The notes beneath the pieces were generated by a model. The model saw nothing but the letters and a program-made list of their open reading frames with translations, made no database searches and was not told where the DNA came from. Positions 1-7,970 of a stretch of 64,000 nucleotides of DNA are shown here, in pieces; positions within the stretch are counted from its first letter, which is position 1; every line of letters starts with the position of its first letter. The translations under genes were made by a program, and so were the position numbers. The stretch is from Clostridia bacterium (GTDB lineage Bacteria; Bacillota; Clostridia; UBA1212; DUPL01), in contig JBMNIW010000002.1 of assembly GCA_050951325.1 (NCBI GenBank), positions 1-64,000 of the forward strand, read 5' to 3'.

Positions 1-1
1 C

Positions 2-148
2 AAGAAATCATATGAAGAAGATGAAATTTATAATGTTTTACTGGAGATTAGAAAAGAGTATGGTCATGACCATGAAAATAGTGAATATGATGAGGATTAC
101 AAGGAACTAATAGATTATCTGATAAGTAGAGGGGATAATGGGATATAG
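2..148 (+). CDS. 3' end of an acidic hypothetical protein running in from outside the window
   Basis: Open frame from base 2 (KKSYEEDEIYNVLLEIRKEY...RGDNGI) to TAG at 146-148. Confidence 0.5.
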   Translation, partial: KKSYEEDEIYNVLLEIRKEYGHDHENSEYDEDYKELIDYLISRGDNGI

Positions 149-182
149 AAAAACAATTCAAAAAATAATGCTGCCATAAAAT

Positions 183-211
183 TTGACAGTATGAGTAGTT
201 TGAAATATCAT
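183..211 (+). promoter_or_regulatory. sigma-A-like promoter
   Basis: TTGACA (183-188), 17 nt, TATCAT (206-211). Confidence 0.55.
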
Positions 212-244
212 TATAAGTGACAATAAAATAATATTAAATCAAAG

Positions 245-300
245 AAAACTAACATAGCAAATTTGCCCGGAAAAGAGGGTTTTGCCGTGTTAGTTTTTTT
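245..300 (+). terminator. long hairpin with U-tract (intrinsic terminator or attenuator) upstream of ORF 328
   Basis: AAAACTAACATAGCAAA ... TTTGCCGTGTTAGTTTT inverted repeat followed by T-run. Confidence 0.65.
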
Positions 301-327
301 GTTTATTTAGAAAGGAGAGATGTTTTT

Positions 328-681
328 ATGAGTAGGGTTAATGTTTATGAAAGTGAATTTTGTAATGAGATTGTTGCCAGAGTAAAATATAATGAAAAAT
401 TAGATTACTGGAATGGACGCAACTGGGGTAATGGAGGATTAGGAATGCATAAAGGCATTACTAAGTTAAAGGACGGCAGGTTTGTTATTATTATAGGTTC
501 TCAAATGCAAGGCTCAAAAGACTATGCCTATATAGTAAGTAAAGAAGAGGCATTACAGGAAGTTTTAGAGTCAGGCAATGTGGAACTATTGGAGGATAAA
601 AAATTTGCTGAACTAAAAACTCTGTATGAGAAATTATGTGATTTAGAAGAAATTGATGAGGCAGAAACTACTGCAGAGTAA
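328..681 (+). CDS. hypothetical protein, phage/MGE-type (117 aa)
   Basis: Good RBS (GAAAGGAGA), own terminator; LDYWNGRNW...HKGITKLKDGRFV motif reminiscent of uncharacterised clostridial phage/plasmid proteins. Confidence 0.8.
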   Translation: MSRVNVYESEFCNEIVARVKYNEKLDYWNGRNWGNGGLGMHKGITKLKDGRFVIIIGSQMQGSKDYAYIVSKEEALQEVLESGNVELLEDKKFAELKTLYEKLCDLEEIDEAETTAE

Positions 682-707
682 TGAAAAGGTTATAAAGGGT
701 TATGTAG

Positions 708-738
708 GGAGTCGGGCTATAAGCCTAGGCTCCTTTTT
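708..738 (+). terminator. intrinsic terminator
   Basis: GGAGTCGGGCT-ATA-AGCCTAGGCTCC-TTTTT. Confidence 0.75.
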
Positions 739-815
739 AAATTACAACTACTATCGTAGATTACACTAATTTATATTTGTAATACTTAGTTTACAAGGAG
801 ATTGGGCTAAAAATT

Positions 816-940
816 TTTTCAACATAATATAAATTATGCTGCAGAAGGTCCTGACTTTAGTTGCAAAAAGCGGTAACATCAATATATGAATTCAACATAA
901 TTTACAGGAATTTAGAAACTTGATTGGCAACATAATTTAT
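816..940 (+). other. TnpI-type internal resolution site (IR1-IR2 core plus DR1, DR2)
   Basis: CAACATAAT (820-828)-ATAA-ATTATGCTG (833-841) inverted pair, then direct repeats CAACATAATTTA at 893-904 and 928-939 abutting the recombinase RBS; same layout and near-identical motif as the Tn4430 IRS (CAACACAAT). Confidence 0.85.
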
Positions 941-952
941 GGAGGTGAAATT

Positions 953-1783
953 TTGTTAGAAGAATTTAGAGAGTACTTAACATTGCAAGGAAAAAGCGAG
1001 AATACTATCAATAGTTATTATTTGCATATGAAAGGTTACCACCAATGGTATTTGGTATCCTTTGGCAGAGAATGTTCGGTGCTATACCGGGAAAACATCT
1101 TAGATTATATCAGTTATCTTCGTAATATTAAGAAAGATACTGGTAGAACAATAAATTGCAAGATTAGTGCATTGATAAAGTATAATGAATTTTTGATTGA
1201 GAAAGGAATACAGCAAGACCAAGTAGTTTCAAAGAAAGATAATATTAATGTACAGCAGACATATGCAAACCCTTCGGATATAACTAAACAGGAAGTAGAT
1301 GCTTTTAGACAACAACTATTAGAGAATGGGCATCGAGATATTTATTGTTTGGCCACATTATTAGCATATGCAGGTTTAAGAATTAGTGAAGCACTTAATA
1401 TTCAGTTAACAGACTTCAATTTAACAGTTGGAGAGTTAAAGGTTAGGGGTAAGGGAGATAAAGACAGAGTTGTTTATTTAAATGATAAGATTATTAATAG
1501 TATAAGAGAGTTCTTAAGAGTGAGAGAAAGTGAAAGTCCATATTTATTTGCAAATAGTAATGGAAAGGTAATCCATAGATCAACAGTTAATAAGGTTTTC
1601 AATAAGTATAGCGATAAGATTACCCCTCATACATTGCGGCATTATTTTTGTACAATTGCTTTGGAGGGCGGGCTATCGGTTCATGAGGTTGCCTATTTAG
1701 CAGGGCATAGCAATATTCACATAACGCTTATATATTTGAATCCGAGTAGAGAAGCAATTAGGGGAAAAATAAATAACCTGTAA
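953..1783 (+). CDS. tnpI: TnpI-like tyrosine recombinase (resolvase)
   Basis: TTG start after GGAGGTG; catalytic R (GLRISE), K (GKGDK), HxLRH, GH, Y; segments LYRENILDYISYL, ESPYLF, ITPHTLRHYFCT, AGHSNIH closely resemble Tn4430 TnpI. Confidence 0.85.
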   Translation: MLEEFREYLTLQGKSENTINSYYLHMKGYHQWYLVSFGRECSVLYRENILDYISYLRNIKKDTGRTINCKISALIKYNEFLIEKGIQQDQVVSKKDNINVQQTYANPSDITKQEVDAFRQQLLENGHRDIYCLATLLAYAGLRISEALNIQLTDFNLTVGELKVRGKGDKDRVVYLNDKIINSIREFLRVRESESPYLFANSNGKVIHRSTVNKVFNKYSDKITPHTLRHYFCTIALEGGLSVHEVAYLAGHSNIHITLIYLNPSREAIRGKINNL

Positions 1784-1787
1784 TTAA

Positions 1788-1818
1788 AGGCTATGAAAAG
1801 ATTCATAGCCCTTTTTTT
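1788..1818 (+). terminator. intrinsic terminator
   Basis: GGCTATGAA-AAGA-TTCATAGCC-CTTTTTTT. Confidence 0.8.
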
Positions 1819-1980
1819 GATCAGATTTCAATAACGATACTTTGTCACCTAGATTATACACAATATAGTGAGATACCATATAAATTATGAACTTTAAATT
1901 GGAATAGTATATAATATTGTTAAATAATCTTTGGAATGTAATGGAATCAAATTTAGAAATAGATTTGGGAGGGTTAAATA

Positions 1981-2742
1981 ATGGAAATCATTAATGATTT
2001 TAAGTTTATTTGTGAGATTAAACCCTTGATTAATGATCGTGGGCAAATAATGGAGTATTATCCCTCCACCAAATATAATAATCGGGCAAATAAAAAACTT
2101 AACAAATATGGTAAAGGACCATTTTGTAGATTTCGAATTCCTAACATTATAAACAGCGAAGGTGTCTATATTATTAAAGTCAATAACGATATCTTGTATG
2201 TTGGGGAATGCGAAAATTTAAGTCACAGGTTTAATTTAGGTTATGGTCAAATATCGCCTAGAAACTGTTTTGTGGGAGGACAGTCAACAAATTGCAAAAT
2301 AAATTCATATATTCTACAGGAAATAAAAAATGGTTCAGAAGTATTTCTATACTTCTTTGAAACTGGAGAAAGGTTTAAAATAGAGAGCGAATTAATTAAG
2401 AAGTATAAACCGGAATGGAATTCTACTTCAGGAAAGCATGTAAATTCTGTTGGGAAAAAATCTGTGAATACAAGCCATGAAGAAGTGAAAGGCATAAATA
2501 ATATCAGTAAATATTATCCTTTGGAAAAGTTTCTAAATATACAAAATGTAAATCAGATTGAGTTAACTTTTTCTGAAGTAGAGAAAATCATAGGGGATGC
2601 ACTTCCACCTTCTGCATATAAATATCGTGCTTGGTGGGGTAATGGAGGTCATTCACAGGCAAATGCATGGCTGAACGCAGGCTGGAGAGTAGATAAAATA
2701 AAACTTAGAGACTCAATACTATTTGCAAAAAACAGTGAGTAG
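1981..2742 (+). CDS. GIY-YIG nuclease with C-terminal DUF7662-like domain
   Basis: GVYIIKVNNDILYVGECENLSHRF GIY-YIG motif, IESELIKKYKPEWN; after a low-complexity linker SKYYPLEKFL...LTFSEVEKIIG..LPPSA....WWGN...QANAWL.AGW module. Confidence 0.75.
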   Translation: MEIINDFKFICEIKPLINDRGQIMEYYPSTKYNNRANKKLNKYGKGPFCRFRIPNIINSEGVYIIKVNNDILYVGECENLSHRFNLGYGQISPRNCFVGGQSTNCKINSYILQEIKNGSEVFLYFFETGERFKIESELIKKYKPEWNSTSGKHVNSVGKKSVNTSHEEVKGINNISKYYPLEKFLNIQNVNQIELTFSEVEKIIGDALPPSAYKYRAWWGNGGHSQANAWLNAGWRVDKIKLRDSILFAKNSE

Positions 2743-2758
2743 AAAAAATTATGTTCAT

Positions 2759-2803
2759 TGTTTCATTACACACGAGTTTGTTTACAATTACAAAGTTTGC
2801 TTA
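2759..2803 (+). mobile_element. inverted (left-type) Tn7-like end: TGT plus two TnsB-type sites
   Basis: TGTTTCA-TTACACACGAGTTTGTTTAC-AA-TTACAAAGTTTGCTTA mirrors the reverse complement of the 3178-3227 end. Confidence 0.55.
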
Positions 2804-2814
2804 TCGCAATCGCC

Positions 2815-2851
2815 AACCGTCAGGGGGAAAATTCCCTTTGGCGGTTTTTTT
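2815..2851 (+). terminator. intrinsic terminator inside the inverted end
   Basis: AACCGTCAGGGG...CCCTTTGGCGGTT followed by T-run. Confidence 0.75.
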
Positions 2852-3012
2852 GTGTGTAAAAATAGAATATAGAGAATAAATAAAAATATGTAAATCCGGA
2901 CGCAGTTTTAATCCCTCGAAAGCAAGTAGAATTCAGATGTGTAGGTGGTTTCGATATTTCCTCCCGTAGGTTATACCCTGCGTATGAATACTCATTTTAT
3001 TAGTAAACCTTC

Positions 3013-3227
3013 CACGAGCAAACTTTGTCATTCTTCACTGCTCACGAGCAAACTCGCTTGTCATTTTCTCATTTTTTATATCTTTTTTTATATTTTTTAA
3101 GGTAATAAAACCCGCGAGCAAACTTTGTCACTACAAGGGAAGAAACAGCGAGAAGCCTTGCAACAACTACATTTCAACACGAGCAAACTTTGTCACTCAC
3201 GTGAGCAAACTTATTTGTAACTGGACA
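3013..3227 (-). mobile_element. Tn7/Tn5053-like transposon end with five TnsB-type binding repeats
   Basis: C(A/G)CGAGCAAACTTTGTCA at 3013-3030, 3113-3130, 3178-3195; longer variants at 3043-3063 and 3200-3220; terminal CTGGACA at 3221-3227 (reads TGTCCAGTTACAAATAAGTTTGCTCAC on - strand). Confidence 0.8.
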
Positions 3228-3251
3228 CATACATTCGAATATATGCTATTC

Positions 3252-3289
3252 AAACCGTCATTGTACTACAACTCATGGCGGTTTTTTTT
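3252..3289 (+). terminator. intrinsic terminator just outside the transposon end
   Basis: AAACCGTCAT...ATGGCGGTTT plus T-run. Confidence 0.7.
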
Positions 3290-3414
3290 ATTTCCTTTAA
3301 TAAGATACAATCGTGATAAATAATTAATGTTTGTGTAGTGGGAGGGATGCGTAGTAGGATTTGAGCTGCCGGATACATGTTACATTGTTTGCTGGCAATG
3401 AATTTTATCTTTAT

Positions 3415-5892
3415 TTATACCTTGCTGCCTGAAATTTTCTTTTTCCTTATTACAAGGAAAACCCCTCCGGCAACGGCAATCAGCAGGATTGGGATTAAAG
3501 CAAAACATATAACTTTAAGATTGTTGTCAGAGTTTATAGGATTTCCGGGTACAACCTTGTCTTCATCAATGACGGAAAAATAGTAATCCTCCCAAACAAG
3601 ACGGGTATTGGCATTTTCTGCCCTGTTAACCTTGTATCTTATTTGCAGTTCCTTGTTTGCTTCTACTATTGCGTCAAGCAAGGGGCTGTTGTCATTCCGC
3701 CAGGTATCACCGTCATTAAAACCCTGCCTGTCGGAACGGAAGGTCCACCAATGGGTTAACTGAACTCCCGCGTCTATAATAAGCTCCAAGTATTTGATGC
3801 GTCCCTCGATAAATCCAGGTGACGAAGGATCCGAGTTCCACGAAGCACCGACACATCCTGCGCATTCTCCGTTATACAGAACTTTGCCTATTCTCTTTGC
3901 CTCTTCCATCAAAATTTTATAACCGTTATTTACAGCATTATTTGTTGCGTCTTTGTAATAGAGGTCAAAATCGGATGATGAATCTATATCGTAAGTATGA
4001 GTACTTAAGACATCAACACCCTTATGCAGAAGATACAGAGCCTTAAGTCTTTCTTCAAGGGTATCAATGGTCCAGTTGGATGATAAATCACCTTCCATCA
4101 CTCCTTTAAAAAGGTTCCACTGGGCGGTTCTTAAAGCAGAATCGCCTCCCGTAACAAGTCTTTCCGGATCAATGTCATGTATCTTCTCTGTTACATCCGT
4201 ATAAAACTCACTCAGCTGCAGAAGGGAGTATGTAACTCTTCTGATTGACGCGCCAACATCCGCGTGAAGATTTCCTTCATTTAAGATTTCCCACATCAAA
4301 ATGGTTTTCCTGTCTTTGTACCTGCCTATGAATTCATCAAGATACTTGTAGAGATTCTGCCTTGATACGCTGTCTCTGTCGCTAATCAAATCATACAGGG
4401 TTTCATCGTCACTTACCCAGCCAACCTTGTCGACATATTTCTTTTTTACAAACATATTGTCAATCAGTTCAAGACAAAGAACAATCTTTATGTCATACCT
4501 GTCACACAGATCAAACAATTTGTCCATCATTTCATAGTACTTTTCCTTGTCCTCCCGGGAGTACATTATATCGTTTCTGAGATTGTTCCTGGCAAAAATA
4601 CGGATTGACTTGAAACCGAGTTCATTCAGCTGTTTAAGGGCGCTTTCCGCAGCGGCATAGGTAAACTCGGCAGTGGGATAACTGCTGTCATAGTAATAAT
4701 CCGCTGCAATCTGCATGCACAGGTCGAACTTGTTGAAGCTTATTTCGTAATAGGGTTCTCCGTTCATATAAAACTTGTTGTTGATAATCCTGAGAATGTC
4801 ATCATTCTTGTACTTCCCTGTCGTAAACGCAACCGTCTTTTCAGCCTCGTCCCACCAGATTTTGCAGTTTAACACTTCGTGAAAAAGCTGCAGAGAAGCC
4901 ATATACACACCTTTGTGCCTGATTACCGGATTATTTAATTTTACTGTTTTATTGTTTAATGTTAGGGTGCCGTTATTGATTTCCGCGCTTATTTTATCGT
5001 TTTTTATTATTATTTTGCTTTTACTTGTTTTAACATCAAACCCGGCACATTCCATCACTCTTTCCAACGGAAGGTAAAGAGTATTGTTTTTTTCAACCGG
5101 TGATTTATTCAGATTTATTTTCACAGTATTTATGTAAAGTGAAATGTTTTTATCCTTTTTTACTTTTGGCAATGTTACATCGGGTAAAGGTCCGGTTTCC
5201 TGATATGAATAGGGCTGGGGATATCTGGAACCGCTCGTCTTAAGAGTAAACTTATCAAAACATATATATGAGTCTGAGGTATTGTTGTTTACCAGGAACC
5301 TCATTCCCGTTATTCTGTAAATCGGAATAAAGAAATCGCAGGAACCGACTTCCCTGTCATTGACTGATAATGCATATTTGCTTTCCCCGCGGTTAATACT
5401 TATGGAAATATCATACACCTTGTTTTTTTCAAATTCAAAAACAGTGTTTGCATCATGATCCTTCAGGACAGCATGACCGTTCTCCGGAATAATTGAAAGA
5501 ATCGTATCGTTAGCATTGGGAATCGTCAAATGCTGCGTATATATCTGGAAAAGAAGGGGGTTGTTATAATTCTCATCAATACGAATCTGGAAACTGTAGT
5601 ATATCTCAGGCTCTTCTATAATCAGACTCCACCATCTCATATCGCAGTTTTTTATTTTTAGCGACTTCGTCCCTGAAAGGGGAGATTTTGTGAAAACTTC
5701 AATGTTGCTGTTGGCTGATATGTACGAAGCGGATGAGTTCTTTATTTTATTTACATATCCGTTTGTTATATCGCTGTCTTCGTAATTGTCAAAAACCAGT
5801 ATTGTACTGACGCCTTTTGCTTTTGGAGTTGTATAAGTCATTGTGCTCACCATTGCTATTAAAAGTATATATGATAAAATGCGTTTGTTCAT
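3415..5892 (-). CDS. membrane-anchored clan GH-A (GH5-like) glycoside hydrolase with copper-amine-oxidase N-terminal (stalk) domain
   Basis: Signal peptide from MNKRIL; stalk-domain motifs (LYLPLERVME, VYMASL, IWWDEAEKTV); GFKSIRIF, WEILNEG acid/base, LYNGE nucleophile region; C-terminal TM helix plus RKKK. Confidence 0.7.
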   Translation of the reverse strand: MNKRILSYILLIAMVSTMTYTTPKAKGVSTILVFDNYEDSDITNGYVNKIKNSSASYISANSNIEVFTKSPLSGTKSLKIKNCDMRWWSLIIEEPEIYYSFQIRIDENYNNPLLFQIYTQHLTIPNANDTILSIIPENGHAVLKDHDANTVFEFEKNKVYDISISINRGESKYALSVNDREVGSCDFFIPIYRITGMRFLVNNNTSDSYICFDKFTLKTSGSRYPQPYSYQETGPLPDVTLPKVKKDKNISLYINTVKINLNKSPVEKNNTLYLPLERVMECAGFDVKTSKSKIIIKNDKISAEINNGTLTLNNKTVKLNNPVIRHKGVYMASLQLFHEVLNCKIWWDEAEKTVAFTTGKYKNDDILRIINNKFYMNGEPYYEISFNKFDLCMQIAADYYYDSSYPTAEFTYAAAESALKQLNELGFKSIRIFARNNLRNDIMYSREDKEKYYEMMDKLFDLCDRYDIKIVLCLELIDNMFVKKKYVDKVGWVSDDETLYDLISDRDSVSRQNLYKYLDEFIGRYKDRKTILMWEILNEGNLHADVGASIRRVTYSLLQLSEFYTDVTEKIHDIDPERLVTGGDSALRTAQWNLFKGVMEGDLSSNWTIDTLEERLKALYLLHKGVDVLSTHTYDIDSSSDFDLYYKDATNNAVNNGYKILMEEAKRIGKVLYNGECAGCVGASWNSDPSSPGFIEGRIKYLELIIDAGVQLTHWWTFRSDRQGFNDGDTWRNDNSPLLDAIVEANKELQIRYKVNRAENANTRLVWEDYYFSVIDEDKVVPGNPINSDNNLKVICFALIPILLIAVAGGVFLVIRKKKISGSKV

Positions 5893-6157
5893 GGTATCCA
5901 CCCCTGTTTTGTCTAAAATCTTAAAATCTTGTATAATCAATATTAACTATATTATATTTATTATATTATATTATATATTTAAATCTGCAGGAATATTAAA
6001 AATATGTTTATATGGTAAAAAATGTTGACATATGGGTGTTGGAATAATCATATACAGGAAACAGGTATTATTATTTCGGAGTGGCAGTAAGTGGATCGGC
6101 CACACTCTATAGGACAAATTAATTCTGAACACATGGGTTAAGAGGTATAATAACTCT

Positions 6158-6344: not shown

Positions 6345-6419
6345 TGGAGCTGGTGGTGGGACTTGAACCCACGACCTGCGCATTACGAGTGCGCTGCTCT
6401 ACCTCTGAGCCACACCAGC
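6345..6419 (-). tRNA. tRNA-Thr (CGT)
   Basis: GCTGGTG/CACCAGC acceptor stem, GCGCA-CT-CGT-AA-TGCGC anticodon arm, TTCAAGT T-loop, encoded CCA. Confidence 0.97.
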
Positions 6420-6730: not shown

Positions 6731-7660
6731 CTATAATTTGTGGTTTAAAATTGAATTTACTTGCGATTTCGATAAGAAGTAGTTCGTGAGAGGGAGATCG
6801 AATTTGATTGTAAGTTCATCTATTAACTCTGATGAAGTAGTTAAGTTGATAAACCTATTATCCACATCGGTAAGATTAAATTTTTTTATAAACTTATATA
6901 TTTCAGAAGTTGAAAATTTATTCTCCAACACCTTAAATTGTAATAATCGCTCTAAAAGAACAGCGCAATAGCAAATAAGAAAGTGTCCTTTGATTGAATC
7001 AACTTTTTGAAGAAAAACAGGCCTAGCATCTAGGTCCGACTTCATTATCTTGAACGATTCTTCTATACGCCAAAGGTTATGATATGTTTCGTAGATATCT
7101 AGATCATTCATCTTTATTTCAGATGTAACAAGAAGGTTGTATCCTGCAAGTTCCAGATCTTCGTTTATTGCATCATTGTTTATTACAGCCGCGGCTTTAT
7201 TTCCTTTTTCATCTACGAACTTAACATATTTAGCAGACTCTCCGTATTCTGCCTTCTTTGCTTGAGAATGTGTAAGAAACTTTGCTTTTTCAACCATTTT
7301 GTTTATTTCACATCTTTTTTTATATGCTAAAGATGGATTGTATGTTAAGAGTCTCTTTTCTGTAAATTCTATAGTATAGACTTTTCCTTCATATGTTACA
7401 TCATACGGAAACTTATCAATACATGTTTTATAACGAAATAAAATATTGCCGTTTTTATCTTTAACATCTTTAAAATCTCTATCAAGAAGCACCCATTTCT
7501 TCTCTTTATCCGGAAGCTTTTTTACTGCTTTTGAAAATATGTAACCATCACCATTCTTTTTTGCATACGCTATGTTGTTGGCACAGTTAAGTCCTTTATC
7601 TGCTACATGAATGGTTCTTCCTGTTATGTTATTTTGCTTTTTAAGATTGCTTATTACATC
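6731..7660 (-). pseudogene. IS1634-family transposase, 5'-truncated
   Basis: TIHVADKGLN (2nd D), GYNLLVTSE, YHNLWRIEESFKIMKSDLDARPVFL, IKGHFLICY; the first ~80 aa of the predicted ORF are the antisense of the neighbouring gene. Confidence 0.85.
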
Positions 7661-7970
7661 TGTGTTGGGCTTCGTTATTCTTGCTTTTGGAGTATTCGTA
7701 ATGTTGAGTACGGATTTTATTATGCTTCCCCAGGATGCAGCCGTTGCAGTAATTTCAAACAAGTATAAAAAGGAGTACGGTAAGATAAAGATTACTTTGG
7801 ATGTAATACTGACTACAATTGCAACTGCAAGTTCTTTTGTAATATTCAGTAGAATAATACATGTGGGCGTTGGGACCATTTTAGCTGCAATCTTCGTTGG
7901 CAAGATAATCAGCCTGCTTCAGAAGTCTGCTGGTATTAATCGTTTTATTAGCTGGGCTATTGGTGATTAA
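7661..7970 (+). pseudogene. 3' half of YczE/YitT-family membrane protein
   Basis: ILAFGV...MLPQDA, YGKIKITLD, VGVGTILAAIFVGKII; no start/RBS, abuts the transposase fragment. Confidence 0.7.

Follow-up and report, generated by a model that had tools for sequence, protein, structure and literature searches.

A Tn4430-type TnpI/IRS module within a Tn7-like transposon family that targets rpsI and keeps a substituted TnsA

Transposons of the Tn5053/Tn402 and Tn552 types and the type V-K CRISPR-associated transposons (CAST) combine a TnsB/TniA-type transposase with an AAA+ partner, have no tnsA gene, and follow a replicative pathway; where a resolvase is present, it is of the serine type. A D114A mutant of Tn7 TnsA was reportedly described by May and Craig in 1996. 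Here we analyze a stretch of 64,000 bp from a member of the Clostridia (positions 1 to 64,000 of contig JBMNIW010000002.1, assembly GCA_050951325.1), referred to below as the window, in which a TnpI-family tyrosine recombinase, its resolution site (IRS) and a TnsB-type transposon end lie close to the left edge. Window positions 1-3227 are the left-hand part of a Tn7-like transposon of about 25.3 kb, and the TnpI/IRS module is a conserved part of the family of Tn7-like elements, targeting rpsI, to which this transposon belongs. We infer, with slightly better than even confidence, that the module most likely resolves the replicative products of a transposition machine whose TnsA no longer cuts.

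That Tn7-family elements can switch between cut-and-paste and replicative transposition is known from TnsA mutants made in the laboratory; for natural elements, the only ground for inferring such a switch has until now been the loss of tnsA. TnsAB(D106A) gave 149/150 cointegrates (PMC9881144), and with TnsA D90A the entire donor backbone was integrated between duplicate copies of the mini-Tn (PMC8188705). For Tn7-like transposons without tnsA, Benler et al. (2021) predicted a replicative mode together with tyrosine or serine resolvases, termed tnsR; resolvases in tnsA-bearing elements they judged to be unsupported as transposition functions (PMC8649781). Tyrosine resolvases in Tn7-like elements have therefore already been predicted, and the suggestion in the original prediction that this locus is an undescribed system does not stand in that form; what is new is a variant that keeps a substituted TnsA. 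Our literature search found no account of a natural clade of D114-substituted TnsA proteins paired with TnpI, although the supplements of Tn7 surveys, which lay outside that search, may bear on the point.

The window begins at the first base of its contig (C2) in a genome (G000) assembled into 12 contigs, totaling 3.08 Mb and 96% complete, and the remainder of the element lies on a second contig, C3. A contig (L065) from G147, a relative belonging to a different family, matches C3:4135-1 at 97.6% and runs without a gap into window positions 1-842 at 94.3%, and the junction is likewise unbroken in three records of the genome_contigs set (L068, L072 and L076). No overlap between the contig ends of G000 was found; the starts of C3 and of the window nevertheless abut, because all four of these sequences read straight across the junction, and window positions 1-3227 are therefore the left part of a single element of 25,288 bp (22,061 bp on C3 and 3,227 bp here) with TnpI inside it. 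Pfam searches of C3 identify TnsA (both N- and C-terminal domains), TnsB, TnsC and TnsD, together with BrxA, BrxB, BrxC, PglX, PglZ and BrxL of a bacteriophage exclusion (BREX) system. Read from its host junction on C3, the order is the rpsI stop codon, 5 bp, a 471-bp unit bearing transposon ends, tnsA-tnsB-tnsC-tnsD, type 1 BREX, two small open reading frames (ORFs), IRS-tnpI, variable cargo, a second 471-bp unit, 5 bp and the host terminator. Part of the original prediction, which had only the window to draw on, is borne out: the module and the end share an AT-rich block (GC 0.28-0.37 across positions 1-3400, and 0.39-0.44 further on), and TnpI does reside in a Tn7-like element. Its proposal of a replicative element that lacks TnsA survives only in part, in that a replicative lifestyle is plausible, but tnsA itself is present beside tnsB, tnsC and tnsD.

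The ends of the element are more elaborate than a single TnsB-type end. The TnsB-type site motif GAGCAAACTTTGTCA has 11 matches at up to three mismatches where 3.27 are expected, a number reached in 0/100 shuffles, with exact copies at 3016, 3116 and 3181 and degenerate ones at 3046-3061 and 3203-3218. These form a left-end-type array on the minus strand (3013-3227) of five sites (3013-3033, 3043-3063, 3113-3133, 3178-3198 and 3200-3220) and a terminus, CTGGACA, that ends at 3227. As a whole, the 25.3-kb element has this array as its left end, and homology with the C3 copy and with five other assemblies stops at the same base. The earlier account omitted an opposing, right-end-type terminus on the plus strand at 2759-2805, which starts TGTTTCATTACA and comprises a TGT terminus and two TnsB-type sites in inward orientation, opposite to the array. 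A strong terminator with a 14-bp stem (2815-2846, plus strand; -26.4 kcal/mol, z -5.97) follows it, and the array begins about 160 bp beyond. Right-type terminus and left-type array thus form a 471-bp two-ended unit (2759-3227), and the end at 3227, while real, does not stand alone: it is one half of a unit found at both borders. The second copy, on C3, matches window positions 2757-3227 at 93% identity, and the two units are the only clusters of TnsB motifs in the genome. Their termini are TGT...ACA, with several directly oriented TnsB sites per end that are inverted between ends, and the element has in addition an inner left-type and an inner right-type end. The orientation of the right-type terminus is that of the sites upstream of tnsA in a relative with a canonical TnsA (G153), in which four sites stand in the usual orientation before tnsA; a k-mer search for such arrays upstream of tnsA in 16 relatives was noisy and gave a clear answer in G153 only.

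The position of the insertion is precise. The C3 unit sits 5 bp after the stop codon of rpsI, in rplM-rpsI, with tnsA about 185 bp further on, and the unit starts 5-8 bp after that stop in G000, G147, L076 and L080 as well as in 8/8 further loci with enough flanking sequence. On the window side, CATAC at 3228-3232 is one copy of a target-site duplication whose partner beside rpsI is CATAT (4/5 matches); perfect 5-bp duplications are seen in relatives, as AATTT around the whole structure in L076 and as GTTTA in G090. Beyond it lies a terminator on the plus strand (3252-3292; a hairpin at 3252-3284 and a U8 tail, -13.9 kcal/mol, z -3.65), recognized earlier at 3252-3289, and this is most likely the rpsI terminator, displaced 25 kb by the insertion; the solo unit after rpsI in G090 is likewise followed by a terminator. 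Target-selected insertion downstream of a conserved gene and just upstream of a host terminator had been anticipated correctly. An empty rpsI site was sought in close relatives and none was found, the genome being alone in its family among those searched, and only order-level relatives matched the flank, weakly. No published use of rpsI as an attachment site for Tn7-like elements was found either, though supplements of Tn7 surveys, outside the search, may list it.

Two other accounts of these ends were considered and rejected. The unit is not a miniature inverted-repeat transposable element (MITE) that hopped beside an unrelated prophage, since the backbone is continuous with tnsA, tnsB, tnsC, tnsD and BREX in four assemblies. 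To take the inner array boundaries as the true termini would conflict with the TGT and ACA termini, with the duplications of 5 bp and with the orientation of the sites in G153. An assembly mis-join across a 300-bp stretch identical between the two units was weighed as well; L076, L080 and G341 independently show the order rpsI-unit-tnsA, and L076 also shows the junction of cargo, unit and host.

The transposition genes themselves show an unusual pattern of conservation. The single tnsA gene of the genome lies at C3:20589-21431. TnsB aligns with Tn7 TnsB (7pik) at E 6.6e-109 and conserves the D, D and E of the DDE triad. TnsA aligns with Tn7 TnsA (1f1z/1t0f) at E 3e-35 and, at the positions of E63, D114 and K132, which we take to be the active-site residues of Tn7 TnsA, has glutamine in place of E63 and threonine in place of D114 and keeps K132. 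This is not a peculiarity of one genome. Among 18 TnsA proteins in a sample of genomes from the class, the 12 from elements with the closest TnsB have threonine or serine at D114, nine of these also having glutamine at E63, and the six more distant ones keep E, D and K; among 80 metagenome loci with a TnsA alignment, 38 are substituted at D114 (T 26, S 6, N 5, G 1) and 42 are canonical E/D/K. Judged from these alignments, loss of the TnsA catalytic carboxylates is clade-wide.

The recombinase gene, tnpI, occupies 953-1783 on the plus strand (a longer reading starts at 920), with a TTG start codon and the ribosome-binding site GGAGGTG. Its product of 276 aa, close to the 276-278 aa of most TnpI homologues, matches Pfam Phage_integrase (2e-29) and SAM-like N-terminal domains, and the catalytic motifs, as read by eye, are present: R (GLRISE), K (KGDKDR), HxxR (HTLRH), H (GHS) and Y (LIY). 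The protein shares 48.7% identity across 98% of its length (tblastn, E 2e-82) with the product of a gene annotated 'tnpI: TnP I resolvase', the TnpI of Tn4430, which adjoins a Tn3-family transposase on a plasmid of B. thuringiensis. Preceding the gene is an IRS-type resolution site (816-945, plus strand) with a core formed by IR1 (820-828), the 4-bp spacer ATAA and IR2 (833-841), followed by DR1 (893-901) and DR2 (928-936), the last of which directly precedes the ribosome-binding site of tnpI. The four parts have in common a 9-bp motif, CAACATAAT, with copies at 820, 893 and 928 and an inverted 8/9 copy at 833-841. Exact copies of CAACATAAT number four in the 64-kb window, just one beyond the three in the IRS; at up to one mismatch 31 are found across the window and 33 expected, which is not above chance, so that the signal of the IRS is one of clustering and not of count. 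The core TTTTTTCAACATAATATAAATTATGCTGC is invariant in five related elements, and the whole IRS block is conserved in those five.

The resemblance to Tn4430 extends to the arrangement of this site. The Tn4430 IRS, taken from the plasmid record, reads CAACACAAT-ATTA-ATTGTGTTG followed by two direct copies, so that both systems place an IR1-IR2 core with a 4-bp spacer and then DR1/DR2 just upstream of the gene, built on a common 9-bp motif (CAACATAAT here and CAACACAAT in Tn4430). Start-to-start spacings are 73, 35 and 25 bp here and 62, 36 and 31 bp in Tn4430. The two differ in that the core arms here are imperfect (8/9), and in that the partner of TnpI is a Tn3-family TnpA in Tn4430 and TnsA/B/C/D here. 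A PF01526 search of the 96%-complete genome finds no Tn3-family transposase, and the gene downstream of tnpI is a DUF7662/GIY-YIG-like ORF, not a Tn3-type TnpA. The Tn4430 study describes the same IRS layout and reports that TnpI/IRS resolves Tn4430 cointegrates, with the DR1-DR2 accessory set restricting the reaction to resolution (PMC2847244). We note that a TnpI-family gene 56% identical to the one in the window is also found in a 48.5-kb circular record from Clostridium botulinum (L015:6929-8837), beside a second tyrosine recombinase; the record looks like a phage-plasmid, having terminase, portal-type, SSB and YopX genes, and suggests that the TnpI family also serves plasmid-prophage maintenance.

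Recombinases of this kind seem to go with the substituted form of TnsA. A screen with a hidden Markov model built from 90 TnpI homologues (E<=1e-8) identified recombinase ORFs at 8/38 substituted and 0/42 canonical metagenome loci, all eight lying 80-2,938 bp upstream of tnsA; among loci with at least 2.4 kb of sequence upstream of tnsA, the figures are 8/17 substituted and 0/10 canonical. True TnpI-family genes stand 0.1-1.8 kb upstream of a substituted tnsA and on the same strand in G212, L097 and L087, with 48-53% identity to the TnpI of the window and 53-56% to that of Tn4430, and L097 also has GCAACATAAT repeats. In the six canonical genomes of the class sample no recombinase is linked to tnsA, as far as the contigs reach. 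Tyrosine recombinases beside tnsA, including true Tn4430-type TnpI with a full IRS, were thus found only in the D114-substituted clade. TnpI also recurs with the ends described above, so that the lack of co-occurrence named in the original prediction as a refutation is not seen: homologues at least 80% identical occur at eight genome_contigs loci, five of which (L068, L071, L072, L076 and L079) have the same 471-bp unit, the other three being short or partial. The ends of the G212 element were sought and not located. Just upstream of its tnpI-tnsA pair (L055:2088-2125) are two tandem copies of AATATTTATAACTGGCA, resembling the left-end terminus of the element in the window.

In the interpretation that we favor, TnsB with its intact DDE triad, TnsC and TnsD would bring the element to the site just after rpsI, and TnsA would be retained as a structural subunit without either of its catalytic carboxylates (E63Q, D114T). 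Because these are lost, the donor 5' strands would remain uncut, and transposition would proceed through a Shapiro intermediate to a cointegrate. TnpI would then act at the IRS, with strand exchange at the IR1-IR2 core and selectivity for resolution imposed by DR1/DR2. The element would accordingly bring its own means of resolution in TnpI/IRS, which would serve a Tn7-type machine as TnpI serves Tn4430.

A number of observations weigh against this interpretation. The loci with at least 2.4 kb upstream of tnsA are kin, so that the contrast of 8/17 with 0/10 overstates their independence and is suggestive, not a test, and in 9/17 of the substituted ones no recombinase is in view. The class sample has tyrosine recombinases 28-33% identical to TnpI at 2-8 kb upstream of tnsA in G263, in two elements of G316, in G388 and in G138, but cargo-like genes intervene and these recombinases may not belong to the elements. 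The tnsB, tnsC and tnsD genes of G147 are 98% identical to those of G000, yet G147 has no tnpI, and TnpI is therefore dispensable for persistence. The likely role of the TnpI-family gene in the clostridial phage-plasmid is multimer resolution. There is a single IRS, outside the repeated 471-bp units, and TnpI therefore cannot resolve the unit-backbone-unit structure that is observed. The apparent loss of TnsA nuclease activity is judged from two substitutions. Finally, the tnsD gene of G000 (C3:15904-17184, minus strand; L003:13805-15085) has a 1-bp insertion about 57 codons in, leaving a longest ORF of 366 aa that lacks the first part of the TniQ domain, whereas the intact gene of G147 encodes 420 aa; the frameshift may be real, in which case this copy is immobile, or it may be an assembly error.

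The repeated units give the element an odd architecture. In IS26-type pseudo-compound transposons, direct repeats of a small mobile unit flank passenger DNA and arise from cointegrate formation; the comparison is by analogy only, as the transposase is unrelated and the transposition genes here would lie inside the passenger segment. In G000, G147 and L076 each border carries a copy of the 471-bp unit in direct repeat, and the resulting unit-backbone-unit structure looks like the layout of a cointegrate made by a mini-element. The inner left-type terminus is directed at tnsA, about 185 bp away, and no right end intervenes; this holds in G000, G341, L080, L081 and the 72%-identical G343. Deletions extend from precisely this terminus into tnsA with two different endpoints in two independent variants, in L076 (2837-2860) and in run X1 (a loose end at window position 3227). 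Solo forms also occur, as a clean unit with its GTTTA duplication after rpsI in G090 and as a unit with part of the tnsA leader in G033, and tandem units 5 bp apart are found in L068, L076 and run X3. Scars consisting of the right-type terminus with its two TnsB-type sites and the terminator stand directly after rpsI in G109 (L171), G201 (L172) and G086 (L173), at about 1495-1640, the rest of the element not being in those genomes, and there these right-end remnants apparently act as terminator of rpsI. The unit reaches 5-30 times the summed contig depth of its neighbors in four metagenomes from digesters or sludge.

These features bear on two related alternatives. According to one, which we consider rather unlikely, the transposon proper is the unit, a circular donor segment carries the tns genes, BREX and TnpI/IRS beyond the unit's ends, and the 25-kb structure is a natural unresolved cointegrate, or replicon fusion, at rpsI; TnpI/IRS would then serve the circular form, keeping it monomeric or exchanging modules, and would not resolve the chromosomal structure. 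The direct repeats, the AATTT that flanks the whole structure in L076, the terminus directed at tnsA, the clean solo unit of G090 and the deletions from the exact inner terminus all agree with this, as does the fact that the difference between G000 and G147 comes down to a single contiguous segment only on a circular reading of the element, and the layout is exactly that of the TnsA D90A product (PMC8188705). Set against it, no circular form was observed and no replication gene recognized, and the outer ends would by themselves suffice to move the whole structure. The unit copies, moreover, differ, being 72.9% identical in the first 140 bp and 99.4% in the rest in G000 and about 95% identical in L076, which counts against a recent replicative origin, and repeated, tandem insertion at a hot attachment site (L068, L076 and run X3) followed by deletions could also yield the same layout. 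A more specific version, possible but doubtful in our view, is that of a Tn7-derived integrative element of new design, in which only the 471-bp unit is a transposon and the genes, including an obligatorily nuclease-dead TnsA, BREX and TnpI/IRS, reside on a circle: replicative transposition of the unit after rpsI would fuse the circle to the chromosome as a stable cointegrate, and recombination between units would free the circle and leave a solo unit. Were TnsA active, it would sever the genes of such an element from its ends, which would explain the clade-wide catalytic loss.

Two further alternatives concern the role of TnpI/IRS itself. The module could be a diversification device that swaps cargo between elements at the IRS core, like the XerC-like/dif-like module of Tn6022, instead of having a transposition function. 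G147 is 94-100% identical to G000 up to the IRS core and diverges sharply directly after it, with DR1/DR2 motifs still recognizable and with 10.6 kb of other cargo in place of tnpI behind its IRS, so that the break has, on sequence grounds, the look of a crossover at the core; in G000, L068, L072 and L079 variable cargo begins directly behind tnpI, and there is the precedent of Tn6022 (PMC11014353). We nonetheless regard this as quite improbable, given that in 4/5 comparisons the break falls after tnpI and not at the core, that the full DR1-DR2 set restricts the Tn4430 reaction to resolution (PMC2847244), and that genuine resolution systems, too, give rise to exchange at res sites as a side product. 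Still less probable is that TnpI/IRS is an inert passenger, the relic of a plasmid, phage-plasmid or Tn3-family element captured as cargo. The closest annotated plasmid match (56%) does lie in the clostridial phage-plasmid, and the neighboring ORFs are without known function, but the module is 92-99% conserved along with the backbone in at least five assemblies from different hosts, its IRS motifs are invariant, TnpI-family genes adjoin tnsA in three other elements, and no Tn3 transposase was found in the 96%-complete genome.

Among known systems, the element resembles the tnsR elements of Benler et al. in uniting a Tn7-type core with a tyrosine recombinase read as a cointegrate resolvase and with defense cargo, BREX in this case, and departs from them in that their prediction (PMC8649781) rests on the absence of tnsA, whereas tnsA is kept here without E63 and D114. 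With the TnsA mutants TnsAB D106A and TnsA D90A it has in common the loss of a catalytic aspartate beside an intact TnsB and a backbone lying between two direct copies of a mini-element; those mutants were made in the laboratory, while the substitution here is natural and clade-wide, in 38/80 metagenome loci. Tn5053/Tn402, Tn552 and type V-K CAST differ in being without tnsA. Tn6022 is also a Tn7-like element with its own tyrosine recombinase and site, but its module (PMC11014353) works with a hybrid dif site, depends on XerD from the host and has been proposed to function in diversification, whereas the IRS here is a self-contained set of four motifs. A large natural clostridial clade that keeps TnsA with the catalytic aspartate replaced (38/80 metagenome loci; 12/18 elements in the genome sample) would, on this interpretation, be an evolutionary intermediate between Tn7 and Tn5053-type elements and a system that forms cointegrates in nature and leaves products legible in genome sequences. 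It would also represent a new and precise attachment site, 5 bp after rpsI, spreading BREX among Clostridia of anaerobic digesters; the element occurs in 19 runs from 11 studies of anaerobic-digester metagenomes. So compact and self-contained a set of targeting and resolution functions could interest builders of insertion tools.

The remaining genes of the element are backbone and cargo. The BREX cargo is a complete type 1 set (brxA, brxB, brxC, pglX, an unknown gene of 278 aa, pglZ and brxL; C3:1-13531) that reaches the first base of C3, with about 2 kb between tnsD and brxA, and it is 93-98% identical in G147, L069 and L072, all from other hosts. A backbone ORF of 111 codons spans position 1 of C3 and position 1 of the window, its last 48 codons lying at 2-148 (plus strand), with no Pfam match; an intact copy is found at L065:3950-4285, across the junction. 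The second, conserved backbone ORF (328-681, plus strand; 117 aa) has no family match and is 92-95% conserved in G147, L068, L072 and L076, and the small backbone ORFs have no match in PHROGs or NCBIfam. Behind tnpI is a terminator-like hairpin (1789-1810, plus strand), about where the variable cargo of related elements begins, with synteny breaking at 1813-1947 in L068 and L072. The cargo gene that follows (1981-2742, plus strand) encodes a DUF7662 protein (Pfam 4.4e-16; PHROG endonuclease 2e-9) with a weak GIY-YIG nuclease-like N-terminal part, scoring 0.0038 and under the curated cut-off, and is swapped for different cargo in L068, L072, L079 and G147. Logan contigs from four runs supply short pieces only, none covering the whole stretch, and one of them joins 1656 to 2771, its shorter side being 30 bases.

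Past the element, the first host gene (3415-5940, minus strand) converges on the presumed rpsI terminator and encodes a membrane-anchored protein of 841 aa with a copper amine oxidase N-terminal-like domain and a match to a sialidase-like carbohydrate-binding module (CBM). A tRNA-Thr(CGT) gene at 6345-6419 (minus strand) adjoins an ORF of 390 aa (6731-7903, minus strand), which has a weak match to DDE_Tnp_1 (E 0.0016, under the cut-off) and may be the remnant of an insertion sequence beside the tRNA gene.

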